A stretch of DNA of 64,000 nucleotides, from the IMG/VR virus record IMGVR_UViG_3300025679_000005. One strand, given 5' to 3'. The notes beneath the pieces are model-generated. The model made no database searches, was not told where the DNA came from, and was given only the letters and a program-made list of their open reading frames with translations. Positions 18,439-24,642 of the stretch are shown one piece after another. The stretch comes from a virus. Its lineage: Duplodnaviria > Caudoviricetes. A program made the translations under genes and the position numbers. Numbering within the stretch: position 1 is the stretch's first letter; each line of letters opens with the position of its first letter.

Positions 18439-18645
18439 ATGCCGAAAAGATACACAATCGAGGATATGCAAGCGCTGGCGATTAGCCGGGGTGGGTCCTG
18501 TCTTAGCCCCACTTATCTAGCAAAGAAGCATTTACATTGGAAGTGCTCAGAAGGACATGAGTTGGAAGACCAAAGCTCTCGACAATTCCGACTACATCTA
18601 GGTCTGTCATTTCAAATACTCACGTCACCACCAGCAGCTCTTTGA
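18439..18645 (+). pseudogene. Truncated remnant of a zinc-ribbon homing endonuclease, paralogous to 15728-16786
   Basis: MPKRYTIEDMQALAISRGGSCLS...WKCSEGH matches the first repeat of 15728; similarity is lost after ~42 aa. Confidence 0.7.
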
Positions 18646-19471
18646 TGGCGCCTCGGCCATCGCCCTTGGAGTTGATGTTTCTACGGGCCATGATCTCCCG
18701 GATCTCGTAGGCTTGATACAGCTCACGGACCAGAGGCGTGTCCGAGTTCGAGAGGACGACTTTGACCTCCCGGTCGGCAAGCTCGTGGACGACATTGGCA
18801 AGGCGCTTCTGAGCTTCGAGCCCGAAGCCCACCTCTGTGTACGAGGCGAAGTTCGAGGTGATGTTCAGCGGCACGTAGGGCGGATCGAAGTAGACGAGGT
18901 CGCCCTTCTTCGCTACCTCTAGCTTATCTTCGAAGTCTCCGTTGTTGATCCAGGTGTCTTGCAGTGCCCGATGACAGGCGAGGATGTTCTCCTCGATGAA
19001 GAGAGTGGGTGGAGTCTTGTAGGACCCAAAAGGGACATTGAAGGATCCACTCTTGTTGACTCGGTAAAGCCCGTTGAAACCATTCCGGTTGAGGTAGATC
19101 ATCCTTGCGGCTCGGGCCACGTCAGATAGTTCCTTGGGGACCAAGGCCCGTTGGGCAAGGAACACGTCCTTGGATCCGCTCTTCATCTTCCCCAAGGCAT
19201 CCATCAGCGCCTTGGGGTCGTCCCGAACCACTCGATAGCAGGTGATGAGTTCGGTGTTCCAGTCGTTGATCCAGCCTTCCTTGAAGGCCTTCTTGCCTGC
19301 TAGGTGCCAGAACATGGCCCCACCCCCAACGAACGGCTCGAAATAGGTGTCGATGCTCTCTGGGAACGACTTGACTATTTCAGGGATGAGCTTGGACTTC
19401 CCCCCTACCCATTTCAGGAAAGGGCGTGGAATTGAGCTTATTTCAGGGAGGAATTCGGTCAAACTTGACAT
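18620..19471 (-). CDS. dam: DNA adenine methyltransferase (Dam/D12 class)
   Basis: PFLKWVGGK, YFEPFVGGGA, NRNGFNGLYRVN, DPPY. Confidence 0.93.
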   Translation of the reverse strand: MSSLTEFLPEISSIPRPFLKWVGGKSKLIPEIVKSFPESIDTYFEPFVGGGAMFWHLAGKKAFKEGWINDWNTELITCYRVVRDDPKALMDALGKMKSGSKDVFLAQRALVPKELSDVARAARMIYLNRNGFNGLYRVNKSGSFNVPFGSYKTPPTLFIEENILACHRALQDTWINNGDFEDKLEVAKKGDLVYFDPPYVPLNITSNFASYTEVGFGLEAQKRLANVVHELADREVKVVLSNSDTPLVRELYQAYEIREIMARRNINSKGDGRGAIKELLVVT

Positions 19472-19767
19472 ATCGCCATCGCCTTGTTCATGTGCTGAGT
19501 AAATTCGTCAATCGAAAGGCCCGAGCCAGCTTCTCTGGGGCTCCCCATGATCATGTTGCCGCCGCCCCAGCAATCAGCTGGTTTGCAGCTCTCGACCTCG
19601 TTTAAGGTCTTGGTCAGTCGCAACAAATCGAGGGGGTTGAAGTGGTCCCTGCTGTGCGCAGTGCTTTTCATCTCGTTCAAAGTATTTGAGTCAGAGGGGG
19701 TCATGTACGTGGGTACTCCCGTGGAAGGATGTCTATTTCTTGTGGTGGGTTCTGCTAGACTTGACAT
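19459..19767 (-). CDS. Hypothetical protein
   Basis: ORF between the UPF0489-like gene and dam. Confidence 0.4.
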   Translation of the reverse strand: MSSLAEPTTRNRHPSTGVPTYMTPSDSNTLNEMKSTAHSRDHFNPLDLLRLTKTLNEVESCKPADCWGGGNMIMGSPREAGSGLSIDEFTQHMNKAMAICQV

Positions 19768-19783
19768 ATTGACATTGCTCGAT

Positions 19784-20632
19784 TCATGCCCTGGGTAAAA
19801 GCGACCACGTTTGAGGATTTTCGAGCTGGTGTGAGATCTGAGCGATGTCGGAAAGGCCCGCTAGGTAATCCACCTTCTCGTAGTCGATAGTGCGCTGAAC
19901 CAGAGGACTCAGGGATTCTTGGAAAGGGGTCATGATCGGTACTTTGAGACCGTGGACGAAGTCGTTGAAGGCGGCGTCATGCCAGGGTGGGGACCAGGCA
20001 CTTGACCGACAGATATACACCATCTCGACATTGCCCGCGTATTCCGACACCTTGGGATCAGGCCATACACACGGCTCTGTGTACCGCCTCAGGGAAGCAT
20101 CCAGTTCAGGGAAGCCCCCGTCTCCAAAGCTCCTAGTCCAATCGGCCATCCCCTTCCACGGGGGAAACACGATCAAAGACTTGAGCTGAAGCTGCGTCAG
20201 ATGGGTCATGAGCAGCCAGTTCTCACAGGTGACGTTGCCTCGAAGGGCGTCCCGCTCGAACTGGGCCATGTTGTAGGTCAGGTCGTGGTGAGCGTCAAAG
20301 TTCACCAGCCGGGTGTCAGCTAAGGACGGGCCCTCACAATTCGAACGGGAAAACACCTTGTTCCCGTGCTGATGACTGTCCCCTACAATTACCTCACAGA
20401 GATCATCGAACCGATAGCCCAGACCTCGAAGGGTTTTCCAGAAGTCTCGTGGGTGGGGGTCGTCTAACTTGGCTGACTCTTTGAGGTCGAGCCCCTGTGC
20501 TTTAGCTAAGGCCAGACGAACTTCCCATACAGAGCCGTAGTAGGTTTCAGTTTCTGCGTGAGCCCATTTCCACTCTTCTCGTTCAATAGCGAAGTAGTCC
20601 CAATCTATTGTTAGCCAGATATTTTTTCGCAC
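19784..20632 (-). CDS. UPF0489-like/arginase-fold metal-binding protein (probable start GTG 20632)
   Basis: LTIDWDYF, DSH, NFDAHHD, CENW, ICRSSAWSPPWHD; AAGGAAG upstream of the GTG; the longer ORF call runs through CRISPR repeats. Confidence 0.55.
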   Translation of the reverse strand: MRKNIWLTIDWDYFAIEREEWKWAHAETETYYGSVWEVRLALAKAQGLDLKESAKLDDPHPRDFWKTLRGLGYRFDDLCEVIVGDSHQHGNKVFSRSNCEGPSLADTRLVNFDAHHDLTYNMAQFERDALRGNVTCENWLLMTHLTQLQLKSLIVFPPWKGMADWTRSFGDGGFPELDASLRRYTEPCVWPDPKVSEYAGNVEMVYICRSSAWSPPWHDAAFNDFVHGLKVPIMTPFQESLSPLVQRTIDYEKVDYLAGLSDIAQISHQLENPQTWSLLPRA

Positions 20633-20652
20633 GATACTTCCTTGACGTTGTC

Positions 20653-20843
20653 GTGACCACTTGAAAGGGTTTCGTCTCCCTCTCTGACCCTTTTTGGGTC
20701 CGATTTTGATGGTCATTGGTTCTTACCTGGTGACCACTTGAAAGGGTTTCGTCTCCCTCTCTGACCTGTAAAAACGGGCGGCGTCACCAACACCCAGGTA
20801 TCGGTGGTGACCACTTGAAAGGGTTTCGTCTCCCTCTCTGACC
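20653..20843 (-). CRISPR. Mini CRISPR array: 3 identical 37-nt repeats and 2 unrelated 40-nt spacers
   Basis: Plus-strand repeat GTGACCACTTGAAAGGGTTTCGTCTCCCTCTCTGACC at 20653-20689, 20730-20766 and 20807-20843; spacers at 20690-20729 and 20767-20806; orientation inferred from the effector gene and leader. Confidence 0.9.
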
Positions 20844-21030
20844 TTACCCCTAGGCACCTCAAGCATTTCGCGACCTTGCACAATGCTTTGCGAGAGGTCG
20901 CGAAATCGACCCTTTTTGAGGGAGGGCGATTTGGCAATAAACGCCTGGCTCCATCAACGATGGAGCCTAATTTGGCTGTTGCGAGAGCCTGCTGGCTTTT
21001 TGGCGCCACCGAACCTCTCGCAACGAGGAA
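20844..21030 (-). promoter_or_regulatory. CRISPR leader-like region with several inverted repeats
   Basis: TTTCGCGACCT/AGGTCGCGAAA (11 bp), GGCTCCATC/GATGGAGCC (9 bp), GTTGCGAGAG/CTCTCGCAAC (10 bp). Confidence 0.5.
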
Positions 21031-21034
21031 GACG

Positions 21035-21150
21035 AATTGTCAGAGAACAGAGTGAGAGAAGAAACCCTCTTAAGTGTGGTGGACTCAACCACCAAAGTTG
21101 GGAATACGTAGGTACTCTCACGAGCCCCACTCAGCTAACTTTCGTTAGCT
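21035..21150 (-). ncRNA. Putative tracrRNA/omegaRNA-derived scaffold with anti-repeat; ends uncertain
   Basis: 21039-21076 is complementary (minus strand) to the repeat in blocks of 8/8, 4/5, 8/8 and 6/8 nt; GAAA-tetraloop hairpin at 21133-21150 over the effector stop codon. Confidence 0.65.
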
Positions 21151-23084
21151 GTCGTCCCTAGAGGAGCCACCGACACTGCGCCGCTATCGACACAGCCTTC
21201 CGGTTTGCCTTGCTTACGCTTGGCGCTCTTCCTATTGTGCTCAGGAGCTTTCGCTACTGAGTTTTGGGTCTGCTCTGCCCGAGCAGACCTTTCGGCCCAC
21301 GCTGTTTGGCGTATGGCCAGAAATTCTGGATTGTCAAAGTCCCGGAGATTCATAGCTGCGTTCGCATCTCGATGATTCTCTGGGAGGTGCCCCCTACGAG
21401 GCTCTCGAACGGATCCTACACCGAAGCCGCAGCTCTGGCATCGGAAATATTCGTTAGAACCCAACTTCCTGTTGAGGACCCCGCAGGCATGGCATTGCTG
21501 AGATGTGTATTGAGGCTCCTTGGCGTGGACTACCGCTCCTGCCCAGGTCGCCTTGTAGGTCAATTGCTGGCGAATTGCATAAGGTCCGATCTTGGCCCAC
21601 ATTTTGGCAAAGACCCGTCGCATGCGCTTGGATGCGTTCGAGCCAAGGTCTTGCTTCGCCATCATACCCTTGATGTCCAAGTCCTCGACATGGTAGGTGC
21701 TTGCGCCCTGATCAATCAGGCGTCGAGTGACCTGATGGCGTAGATCCCCCAACAGGTCCGTGATCTTGGAGTCAATGCGTCGGACTTGGCTCTCAACATC
21801 AAGGTAGCCGTTGGAGGGCTTTTGACGGATCGCTTTGCCTTTGGGGTCTAGGCGCACGCTGCCTTGATTGACGAGGACGATACCGTTCTTGTTCGCGGCT
21901 TCGACTGCGACTCGACCTTGTCTTCTGGAGAGTCTCCTCTGGAGGACAGCTTTTTTGCGTTCGAGCTTCTCGACCGTCTTCATAGCCTTCAGGTAGAATT
22001 CCTGAGCATAAATCTTGGCATTGGAGTCAACGACAAATGTCCGTTTGCCCAGGTCGATGCCTAAGGTCTCGCCAGTGCGAGGTTTTGGGTCCGGGGCATC
22101 GATCTCGACTGTCAGAGACAGGTACCAATGAGTCCCTCGTTTTTGGACGGCGACCTGAGTGTGGTTGACGTGATGAACCCCAATAGGGAAATACTTTGGA
22201 CGAGCCAATAGGATCCACTCGTGACCTTTTCCAAAGAACTTGCCAGCTCCTTGGATTTTGATCCGATCTCCCTGTATGGTAACTGTCGTAGACACTCGGA
22301 CAGCACCAGCCTCCGTCGTATAGGCTTCCTCTGGAATTATTGGGAAAGCCGTCACCTTCCCCAATTCCTTGAATGTTGGCTGATTCATCCGGAATTTAGG
22401 AGGGCTCTTCCCAGCCGCCTTGAACTTAGGGTACCCACTAGCTGGAACTCCTGGGGGCGGCTTTACCATGCGATCAAAAGCAAAGTCCACATCCGCGAGT
22501 GCCTCACGACTTACATAGGCAGTAGCTTGGTCCTTCAGGGGCGTTTTGCCGTACAGTGCTTGGGCATTCCTAGGGAATTTGACTATGGGGTCTTCGGCCC
22601 CAGGCTCCCATGCGTCTAGACCTAGGACTCGTGATGCCTGAGGTTGTAACTCCGAAAGATGCGATTCGAGCCATCGAATCGCATTGTTTGGGTTCACACC
22701 CTTGTACTTGTCACCGATCTTTAGGGAACCTTCGATACTGGGGGTTAGAAGGACATCCCCTAGCGGGCCGGAGAACTTCCAACCGCTAGCTTTCTGGCCC
22801 TCTTCTCGGAATTTCTCGTGCGTGTACCCAAGAGCTGTGAACAGAGCTTCGACATCGTAAATGGTTTGAGGGCGCTTGGCCTTTAGCTCTTTTGCGGACA
22901 GGTCCACCCACCCTCGGCGTAGTCCCAGTAGGTAGAGCTGCACCTTGTATGCCTTGTACTCCGCTGTCCTTACTGCGACACCGTGGTTATACGTTCGTCG
23001 AGTGACCCTGCACCAACGAGACAGTTCTTGTTCTTGCCTTGCTGTAGGGTAGATTCGACTTACGTAAGCTTTGTGGATCCTCAT
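21135..23084 (-). CDS. CRISPR-associated enlarged TnpB/Cas12-like (type V) RuvC nuclease, 649 aa
   Basis: TnpB-type N-terminus (YVSRIYPTARQE...RRTYN), RuvC-I LGIDLG, RuvC-II HVEDL, zinc finger CHAC...CQSC, RuvC-III RDANAAMNL; long insertion in the N-terminal lobe; adjacent to anti-repeat and array. Confidence 0.85.
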   Translation of the reverse strand: MRIHKAYVSRIYPTARQEQELSRWCRVTRRTYNHGVAVRTAEYKAYKVQLYLLGLRRGWVDLSAKELKAKRPQTIYDVEALFTALGYTHEKFREEGQKASGWKFSGPLGDVLLTPSIEGSLKIGDKYKGVNPNNAIRWLESHLSELQPQASRVLGLDAWEPGAEDPIVKFPRNAQALYGKTPLKDQATAYVSREALADVDFAFDRMVKPPPGVPASGYPKFKAAGKSPPKFRMNQPTFKELGKVTAFPIIPEEAYTTEAGAVRVSTTVTIQGDRIKIQGAGKFFGKGHEWILLARPKYFPIGVHHVNHTQVAVQKRGTHWYLSLTVEIDAPDPKPRTGETLGIDLGKRTFVVDSNAKIYAQEFYLKAMKTVEKLERKKAVLQRRLSRRQGRVAVEAANKNGIVLVNQGSVRLDPKGKAIRQKPSNGYLDVESQVRRIDSKITDLLGDLRHQVTRRLIDQGASTYHVEDLDIKGMMAKQDLGSNASKRMRRVFAKMWAKIGPYAIRQQLTYKATWAGAVVHAKEPQYTSQQCHACGVLNRKLGSNEYFRCQSCGFGVGSVREPRRGHLPENHRDANAAMNLRDFDNPEFLAIRQTAWAERSARAEQTQNSVAKAPEHNRKSAKRKQGKPEGCVDSGAVSVAPLGTTANES

Positions 23085-23449
23085 GATTTGATTGCTCGCT
23101 CCACTGCATCCAACAAGTCCGATTTGTGGGCTGGTTTGAACAAGACCTTGGCTTCTCCGATGTCTTGCAAAGCCGACATGACGGCTATAGGGGACCCTGT
23201 GTTGAATACGAAGCGCTTAGCCATCTTGGGCTTTGCTTTGATAGCAGCCTGCATGAGGGCGGGGCCGGACAGAACCGGCATCTCGCCGTCAGAGACCACA
23301 CAATCGTAGTCCTTCGCCAGGAGCCCCTTCAGGGCCTTCTCGCTGTCGATGTAGGTGTCCACATCGTAACCCGAAAGACGCAGAGTCCTGGACAGGGCCT
23401 CAGCCACTTCCGGACTGTCGTCTACGACTAGTACCTTTTTCATCGCCAT
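23081..23449 (-). CDS. Stand-alone response-regulator receiver (CheY-like)
   Basis: VLVVDD, VVSDGEMP, NTG, FKP. Confidence 0.88.
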   Translation of the reverse strand: MAMKKVLVVDDSPEVAEALSRTLRLSGYDVDTYIDSEKALKGLLAKDYDCVVSDGEMPVLSGPALMQAAIKAKPKMAKRFVFNTGSPIAVMSALQDIGEAKVLFKPAHKSDLLDAVERAIKS

Positions 23450-24136: not shown

Positions 24137-24378
24137 CTACAGGTCGAAGTCTGACAGGCGTTCCCAAAATGACTTTGAGCCATAGGGATCTCTATCTTGT
24201 TTTTTACGGCAGGCCTGACAGATAGCGCCCGCTACCCTACCGGCTCTGCCAATCTCACTGCACCTAATCGCACAAGGGATCTTCTTCGAGATCGTAATCA
24301 ATTCCGATACAGTCAATGAATTGGGGTCTAGGGTCCTCTCAGTCAGATACCTAGTAACCCATTCCTCTGCTGTCATCG
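24137..24378 (-). CDS. Small hypothetical protein (probable start MTAEEW; start approximate)
   Basis: ATG just after the repeat tract; C-terminal SFWERL motif. Confidence 0.45.
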
Positions 24379-24642
24379 CCGGCTCCGGCTCCCGCTCACG
24401 CTCCGGCTCCCGCTCACGCTCCAGCTCACGCTCCGGCTCACGCTCCGGCTCCGGCTCCCGCTCACGCTCCAGCTCCGGCTCCGGCTCCGGCTCCGGCTCC
24501 CGCTCCGGCTCCAGTTCCAGCTCCAGTTCCCGCTCCGGCTCCCGCTCCGGCTCCCGCTCACGCTCACGCTCCAGCTCCGGCTCCGGCTCCGGCTCCCGCT
24601 CCCGCTCACCAGGTATGCCTCGAACATTAAACAAGGGTTCAT
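24373..24642 (-). CDS. Ser/Gly/Arg low-complexity protein
   Basis: Start overlaps the stop of 24639-24977; stop sits near the next ATG. Confidence 0.45.
   Translation of the reverse strand: MNPCLMFEAYLVSGSGSRSRSRSWSVSVSGSRSGSRSGNWSWNWSRSGSRSRSRSRSWSVSGSRSRSVSRSVSWSVSGSRSVSGSRSRR
24380..24607. repeat. Degenerate hexanucleotide tandem repeat (GGCTCC/CGCTCA/AGCTCC units)
   Basis: About 230 nt of 6-mer units; encodes an SGSRS- or EPERE-type tract depending on frame. Confidence 0.9.

Follow-up and report, generated by a model that had tools for sequence, protein, structure and literature searches.

A 64,000-nt stretch of phage DNA from a peat metagenome, referred to here as the window, carries on its minus strand a gene for a compact nuclease and a small CRISPR array, and the locus raises the question of what is encoded in the segment at 21039-21076 that lies between the two. 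The original prediction had read this segment as a tracrRNA-like anti-repeat that a minus-strand transcript would carry, accompanied by a structured scaffold with a hairpin over the stop codon of the effector gene. Our analysis supports that reading, and we consider it likely that 21039-21076 encodes the anti-repeat of a minus-strand tracrRNA that would guide a phage mini-Cas12 and that shares its strand with the effector gene and the array. The case is backed by covariation in five further loci, by a hairpin directly 5' of the anti-repeat, by a terminator in one homologous locus and by the polarity that the leader of the array sets. On these computational grounds we regard the minus-strand tracrRNA as well supported; the transcription, RNA ends, processing and activity of the system are what we infer from them.

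A TnpB-derived nuclease gene is followed by a three-repeat CRISPR array

Read along the minus strand, the locus consists of the effector ORF, a series of hairpins, the anti-repeat, 195 nt of further sequence, three repeats with two spacers and the next gene. The effector gene (21135-23084, minus strand) encodes a protein of 649 aa that profile and structure matches identify as a TnpB-derived RuvC nuclease of the compact type V, Cas12n/TranC-like kind. It scored 175 bits against the NCBIfam model guided_TnpB (cutoff 100) and contains the Pfam domains HTH_OrfB_IS605, OrfB_IS605 and Cas12f1-like TNB. Its top PADLOC profiles, taken from a library without curated cutoff, were Cas12u4 (2e-38, over the full length) and Cas12f (1e-36), and its matches to the NCBIfam models C2c8 and Cas12f2 lay far under their cutoffs. 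In the family alignment the RuvC D-E-D residues D344, E467 and D573 are invariant, as are the zinc-finger cysteines. An AF2 model built from a 50-sequence alignment reached a mean pLDDT of 84.6; the C-terminal tail (residues 623-649) fell below 50, is thus predicted to be disordered, and is unconserved in the family alignment. Foldseek ranked the TnpBs of ISFba1 and ISDra2 at the top, followed by Cas12p, Cas12f and Cas12m, with LaTranC at rank 11, and a profile of the family gave 143-155 bits for TnpBs, 100 bits for RdCas12n and 68 bits for LaTranC. Since both the nearest folds and the highest profile scores belong to TnpB, the effector is a TnpB core with enlarged REC and WED parts, which has no firm placing in Cas12n or in a named TranC clade.

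The array comprises three identical repeats of 37 nt, all on the minus strand: repeat 1 (20807-20843), which ends in GGUCAC, repeat 2 (20730-20766) and repeat 3 (20653-20689). They are separated by two spacers of 40 nt each (20767-20806 and 20690-20729) that are unrelated to each other and for which no targets were found in the phage database, the window or the viral contigs. We predicted no sigma-70-like promoter near the tracrRNA and no convincing terminator after the anti-repeat in the window, including the stretch from anti-repeat to array.

Repeat 3 is directly followed by a ribosome-binding site, AAGGAAG, and the probable GTG start (20635) of the next gene, so closely that these elements abut the repeat (20620-20689), and an RNA made from repeat 3 and its flank would be crRNA-like and match the 5' end of that gene. 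A similar terminal-repeat RNA has been seen for Cas12r. The product of the gene starting at 20635 (283 aa) has no match in Pfam, PHROG or PADLOC. The region downstream of the array (18620-20716, minus strand) holds this gene of unknown kind (283/310 aa), a gene of 102 aa and one for a Dam-type N6-adenine methyltransferase, which together may make up a restriction-modification-like module. At their starts (19454-19503 and 19750-19799), the two unknown genes resemble each other over 50 nt, with 72% identity.

Taken over both sides, the neighbours of the effector gene are a response-regulator receiver and an RNase HII gene upstream, and ORFs without Pfam match and the Dam methylase gene downstream, with no transposases. 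The stand-alone receiver gene (23081-23449, minus strand) runs into the beginning of the effector gene, with its ORF ending at 23081 and the effector ATG at 23084, an arrangement that suggests co-transcription and perhaps translational coupling. A long microsatellite with a 12/18-nt period lies inside an ORF at 24337-24636. The window also contains a terminase-like ORF, which together with the gene content suggests a very large phage, and the effector protein occurs on a contig of 465 kb.

The segment at 21039-21076 is an inverted copy of the repeat

The segment at 21039-21076 is a degenerate, inverted copy of the 37-nt CRISPR repeat. A repeat finder returned an inverted match of 29 nt at 83% complementarity together with a perfect 8-mer past a bulge, and cofolding of the minus-strand RNA with the repeat gave a duplex of -39.5 to -41.2 kcal/mol in which 29 base pairs are interrupted by two mismatches and a 7-nt bulge. 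The original prediction had proposed pairing over about 26 nt around a bulge, which these results confirm. The coordinates and strings on which it built are likewise exact, namely the anti-repeat itself, GTGAGAG at 21052-21058, CTCTCAC at 21115-21121, and the hairpins TGGTGG/CCACCA at 21077-21094 and AGCTAAC-TTTC-GTTAGCT at 21133-21150, the latter overlapping the TAG stop at 21135-21137.

The complementarity is well beyond chance. When the 64-kb window was scanned on both strands (128 kb of sequence), background duplexes with the repeat had a mean energy of -18.4 with a standard deviation of 4.4, and the anti-repeat formed the strongest duplex outside the array. Its alignment score of 33 makes it the sole such non-array site, scores elsewhere in the window being 20 or less. 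The predicted pairing takes up positions 2-34 of the repeat, with its tail GUCAC and the spacer remaining free.

A separate, short complementarity (10 nt, 90%) exists between 21167-21176 in the tail of the ORF and 20798-20807, which comprises the last base of repeat 1 and the first 9 nt of spacer 1; it is probably due to chance.

Anti-repeats match their own repeats in homologous loci

An exhaustive profile search of 1.84 billion protein representatives returned seven proteins besides the query at E < 1e-30, with identities of 33-48% to the window effector. The family is thus rare and amounts, at 50% identity, to about eight clusters in a set of 1.8 billion protein representatives. No close relatives turned up in 185,579 reference genomes or in the collections of viral and metagenome contigs: a word-indexed protein search and scans of viral, genome and metagenome contigs yielded distant TnpBs only, and an 18-mer scan of viral contigs for the family loci gave no match. 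Arrays are present in six of the eight family clusters examined, that is in the window and five homologues; for the remaining members, L005 and L113, there was no array within the DNA fetched.

The repeats of the five homologous loci are unrelated apart from a shared 3' tail, G(U/C)CAC, and the GUCAC tail beside the spacer is conserved solely in the sense of the gene strand. Each of these loci has its own anti-repeat on the gene strand, located 30-135 nt past the stop codon or, as in L004, inside the end of the ORF. When we tested all six repeats against all six tracr regions, the best partner of each repeat was the tracr region of its own locus (6/6 columns). At the level of sequence comparison, this covariation of the whole helix is the strongest evidence for a functional pairing. 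A seventh, distant locus, which encodes a 542-aa relative in a 512-kb phage, likewise has an anti-repeat inside the tail of its ORF. G-U wobbles did not discriminate between the strands, the sums over six loci being -224 and -221 kcal/mol, and a strand call from wobble counts was dropped as uninformative.

An internal repeat hairpin was not significant in five of the six family repeats, that of L002 being the significant one (z = -3.4), and the internal hairpin of the type I-D-like repeat at L124 (see below) is much stronger than those of the family repeats. The lack of an internal hairpin in most family repeats is in keeping with a need for a partner RNA. At L003, where the array lies elsewhere than downstream of the gene, a gene-strand intrinsic terminator immediately follows the anti-repeat.

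Two further observations concern the arrays of these loci. The array at L003:1-215, upstream of the P0013 gene, has 'spacers' with a conserved 3' segment (CGAGAGG...GGTGGA), and only about 20 nt after each repeat are variable, which gives the unit the appearance of an omegaRNA-type array whose repeats are long; its word CGAGAGG also occurs in a leader box of other loci. At the P0014 locus, a tRNA gene (L002:2761-2846) directly follows the two-repeat array.

Hairpins precede the anti-repeat

Between the effector ORF and the anti-repeat, about 95 nt of the minus strand contain three hairpins. Hairpin A (21133-21150, AGCUAAC-GAAA-GUUAGCU) overlaps the stop codon and is part of the minimum-free-energy fold of the window sequence. 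Hairpin B (21109-21131), also seen in minimum-free-energy folds, has a GUGA tetraloop and includes the minus-strand GTGAGAG to which the original prediction had drawn attention; locus L001 has an analogous hairpin, ...UUC-GUGA-GAA.... Hairpin C (21077-21094, UGGUGG-UUGAGU-CCACCA) stands directly 5' of the anti-repeat. The minus strand at 21030-21260 as a whole folds with z = -3.0.

A hairpin directly 5' of the anti-repeat was present in all six loci, in sequences unrelated to one another, and compared with local 24-nt windows each ranked among the lowest 0.5-6% (Fisher combined p = 3e-6). Further upstream, a second hairpin did not reach significance across the loci (p = 0.08), and we obtained no alignment of the scaffold upstream of the last hairpin across loci. 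Both hairpins that the original prediction had placed around the anti-repeat are in the sequence: the position of TGGTGG/CCACCA is kept in 6/6 loci, and the AGCTAAC hairpin is a feature of the minimum-free-energy fold. The codons for the disordered tail (residues 623-649; 21138-21218, minus strand) probably form the 5' part of the tracrRNA scaffold, judging from the pLDDT values below 50, the lack of conservation of the tail in the family and the layout of Cas12n.

The original prediction had further proposed a pseudoknot or alternative pairing between GTGAGAG and CTCTCAC, which our results do not support. A complement at least as long was obtained in 14% of shuffles of the upstream 127 nt. 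The GTGAGAG arm corresponds to the GUGA loop and 3' stem of hairpin B, the CTCTCAC arm is largely taken up by the repeat duplex, the anti-repeat of L001 has no bulge, and complements between anti-repeat and scaffold were of chance length in four of five homologues. L004 has a longer complement of 8 nt between its anti-repeat and the upstream scaffold (p = 0.04).

A pseudoknot of the Cas12n type, in which the repeat tail would pair with the 5' part of the scaffold, may exist. The repeat tail GUCAC has a candidate GUGAC partner in L002 that closes the fold, and a wobble variant of it in L001; no consistent partner was found across the loci. The motif 'TAGTGA' was considered for the role of a conserved pairing partner in such a pseudoknot and was set aside because its complementarity to the repeat tail is inconsistent. 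No Rfam family, including omegaRNA and RAGATH, matched the window or the homologous loci.

A stretch homologous to Chloroflexota type I-D leaders separates the anti-repeat from the array

The 195 nt between the anti-repeat and the array (20844-21038, minus strand) are highly structured (z = -6.3) and are conserved in sequence among the family loci. At a protein identity of 48%, the window and L001 share one identical 18-mer in this stretch. In this stretch we recognised three boxes, GTTGCGAGAGG (21014-21024), CTCTCGCAAC (20978-20987) and CCTCTCGCAAA (20887-20897), the last of which ends 43-44 nt before repeat 1. The leader boxes GCGAGAGG, CTCTCGCA and CCTCTCGCAAA are matched in order in the window, with gaps of 26 and 83 nt. 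A literature search for the three boxes returned nothing; they may act as an operator, as a signal for adaptation or as an RNA switch.

We scanned for the three-box pattern GCGAGAG, 15-45 nt, CTCTCGCA, 70-100 nt, CTCTCGCAAA, and obtained 46 matches in reference genomes, with far fewer than one expected by chance. Nearly all of them are from Chloroflexota (Ktedonobacteraceae, Chloroflexia, Dictyobacter). In 35 of 47 loci, a distance of 42-45 nt separates the end of the pattern from the first repeat of an array, the repeats being 37 nt long and ending in ATTGAAAC, and all three boxes were invariant in an alignment of the window, L001, a phage array and 11 host leaders. A type I-D Cas1 above the curated cutoff was encoded upstream in seven of ten sampled host loci, about 350-490 nt from the leader and on the same strand. 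On this homology, the 195 nt between anti-repeat and array are a CRISPR leader of the host kind and not tracrRNA scaffold. We also entertained the element GCGAGAGG...CCTCTCGC as part of an extended tracrRNA or as a natural single-guide linker, and dropped this reading because a 512-kb phage and 46 Chloroflexota loci have the element in front of arrays that are unrelated.

The leader form with a GCGAGAGG hairpin, CCTCTCGCA and CCTCTCGCAAA is common to many Chloroflexota arrays and to phage arrays with unrelated repeats, and GCGAGAGG is able to pair with either downstream copy. Host leaders also contain promoter-like elements, TTGACA/TATAAT or TTG../TATACT, between or after the three boxes; the TATACT box is absent from the leader of the window. 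Because stand-alone type I-D leaders carry promoter-like boxes just upstream of repeat 1, a separate promoter for the array within the leader is plausible by analogy.

The 512-kb phage (IMGVR_UViG_3300028654_000001) is a complete huge phage of 512,571 bp with direct terminal repeats and has two arrays behind this leader. The array at ~116.4 kb (L124/L139) consists of at least 16 units with type I-D-like hairpin repeats that end in ATTGAAAC and has no family effector beside it; the array at ~285.3 kb (L131/L138) follows the gene for the distant 542-aa TnpB-like protein, which has a long tail and the anti-repeat in its ORF. A second, weak TnpB-like match lies at ~501 kb of the same genome. Of 41 loci with the leader, 5 have a gene for a tyrosine recombinase within ~40-800 nt on its upstream side (L161:3596-4588, L180:6158-7306, L162, L170 and L142), which may hint at mobile arrays; at this frequency, we rejected the recombinase as a general partner of the host leaders.

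Leader homology fixes the polarity of the crRNA, the array being read on the minus strand, and it points to the host: the phage of the window would appear to infect a member of the Chloroflexota. It further suggests that at least the leader, and perhaps the whole array, was captured from a type I-D locus of the host. The family repeats resemble host type I-D repeats only weakly and to differing degrees: p was 0.01 for the window and 0.003 for L002 and L004, and the remaining loci showed no significant similarity. Descent of the former from the latter was not retained as an explanation.

Alternative roles of the inverted repeat copy

The same helix could be used in other ways than by a tracrRNA in trans. 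If the effector mRNA, anti-repeat, leader and array formed one read-through transcript, the anti-repeat might act mainly in cis by folding onto repeat 1 as an omegaRNA-like single guide, with pairing in trans left to the later repeats. The minimum-free-energy fold of the contiguous RNA indeed forms the duplex of anti-repeat and repeat 1 in all five loci tested, TranC enzymes are described as intermediates between TnpB and Cas12, the window leader is without the TATACT box of the hosts, and the single terminator predicted after an anti-repeat belongs to L003, where the array is not downstream. Such a fold would have to span a loop of ~195 nt, however, and this loop is homologous to stand-alone type I-D leaders with their promoter-like boxes, which makes it plausible that the array has a promoter of its own; for repeats 2 and 3, an RNA acting in trans would be required anyway. 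On balance we consider a mainly cis-acting anti-repeat unlikely. It is more improbable still that the inverted copy is a non-functional remnant, for instance of an array rearrangement, next to an effector that works with crRNA alone. Compact phage type V systems that are free of tracrRNA exist (Cas12r, Casdelta), but a remnant does not account for the fact that six or seven loci, with only the GUCAC tail common to their repeats, have the copy at the same place and on the same strand, fitted in each case to another repeat, and most of the family repeats are without the internal hairpin typical of tracr-independent crRNAs.

The strand itself is also open to challenge, as duplex energies are approximately equal in either sense and the DNA hairpins are symmetric between the strands. 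A partner transcribed from the plus strand would have the Cas9-like layout, with the anti-repeat 5' and the scaffold 3', or would be an antisense regulator of the array. Against both stand the leader homology, according to which the array begins on the minus strand, the conservation of the GUCAC tail beside the spacer in the gene-strand sense only, and the position of the L003 terminator on the gene strand. To our knowledge, all known type V tracrRNAs carry their scaffold 5' of the anti-repeat; in the window the hairpins lie 5' of the anti-repeat on the crRNA strand, a correspondence with type V tracrRNAs that concerns the layout only. We judge a plus-strand partner to be highly improbable and retain the minus-strand tracrRNA as the reading of 21039-21076.

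Relation to Cas12n, TranC and TnpB systems

The locus resembles Cas12n (type V-U4 / V-N, c2c9) in that a compact TnpB-derived RuvC effector is followed by a small array without cas1/cas2. In Cas12n, the end of the ORF, which codes for a disordered C-terminal tail, also encodes part of the tracrRNA scaffold, with the anti-repeat at the 3' end of the tracrRNA (PMC12216341; bioRxiv 10.64898/2026.03.27.714800), and the single guide has five stems and a pseudoknot (PMC12216341). A similar layout is probable in the window, where the tail (residues 623-649) is predicted to be disordered and hairpin A lies over the stop codon; the best PADLOC profile of the effector is Cas12u4. It differs from Cas12n in the position of the anti-repeat, which is past the stop codon and not inside the ORF, and in the type I-D-like leader of its array; RdCas12n also scored below the TnpBs with the family profile (100 versus 143-155 bits).

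TranC systems (Jin et al., Cell 2025, as cited in PMC13565253 and bioRxiv 10.64898/2026.03.27.714800) share with the window a TnpB-like nuclease and a short array without adaptation module, are often phage-borne, and have a guide viewed as a split omegaRNA/reRNA. The stable link of a TnpB-like effector to an array and a split guide, by which TranC is recognised, is found here as well, with arrays in six of eight clusters and TnpBs as the nearest folds. The effector, at 649 aa, is larger than the ~300-600 aa stated for TranC, and LaTranC is distant from it both in profile score (68 bits) and in Foldseek rank (11).

With the omegaRNA of TnpB (ISDra2, ISFba1), whose nucleases are the nearest solved folds, the locus has in common a scaffold that probably overlaps the 3' end of the gene and a guide that lies 3' of the scaffold; unlike an omegaRNA, the RNA would be split, with a separate anti-repeat and three repeats with unrelated spacers behind a CRISPR leader. 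The presence of repeats with distinct spacers and of a leader, together with the lack of a flanking transposase and of an Rfam match, sets the locus apart from TnpB-omegaRNA elements of the IS200/IS605 or IS607 kind.

Virus-borne mini-CRISPR arrays are reported to imitate host arrays, Medvedeva et al. 2019 being said to give an example. Like these, the window has a short phage array without cas1/cas2 behind a host-like leader, which the adaptation machinery of the host could plausibly extend; it differs in bringing its own type V effector and a matching tracrRNA, and its repeats are not plainly of the host type.

The original prediction had interpreted the locus as an omegaRNA split into tracrRNA and crRNA. 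Such a split by way of TranC is a published origin of type V systems (Jin et al. 2025, in PMC13565253; bioRxiv 10.64898/2026.03.27.714800), so that the interpretation agrees with an existing model for TranC and Cas12n and is not new. It is also incomplete for this locus, where the leader of the array is of the host type I-D-like kind and thereby indicates that an existing array was captured. The route in which a TnpB comes to lie next to a pre-existing array 'cannot be ruled out' as a path to type V systems according to PMC10691335. We tentatively raise the possibility, to which we give somewhat less than even weight, that the effector family took over a Chloroflexota type I-D leader, perhaps with its array, and that the anti-repeat then tracked whichever repeat lay behind it, without duplication of a piece of an omegaRNA. 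The tracrRNA arrangement as such is already known for Cas12n and TranC; what is new here is the leader of the Chloroflexota type I-D kind on the array.

Proposed mechanism and implications

We propose that the tracrRNA, either cut from the effector mRNA or made from a promoter of its own, would most likely begin within the last ~80 nt of the effector ORF, in the codons for the disordered tail, pass through the three hairpins (21150-21077) and end with the anti-repeat. In the pre-crRNA, the anti-repeat would then pair over ~29 bp with roughly the first 34 nt of every 37-nt repeat, such that the conserved repeat tail GUCAC and the spacer would remain single-stranded. This duplex may be cut by RNase III of the host or by the effector itself, after which the tracrRNA:crRNA pair would load the 649-aa RuvC nuclease, and the loaded nuclease would be expected to cleave matching DNA beside a PAM.

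The tracrRNA adds a rare effector family to the Cas12n/TranC pattern, and with its 649 aa, intact catalytic residues and a single-guide design that can be predicted, the effector is a reasonable candidate for a compact editor. The leader provides sequence-level evidence that systems of the type V kind may arise, or be rebuilt, when a TnpB-type nuclease and an anti-repeat are coupled to a captured array. If the leader was indeed captured in this way, the locus would be a concrete case of a TnpB joining a pre-existing array, a route left open in the literature, and Cas1-Cas2 of the type I-D system of the host could load spacers for a type V nuclease of the phage. The leader thereby raises the testable idea that spacers are supplied across CRISPR types.
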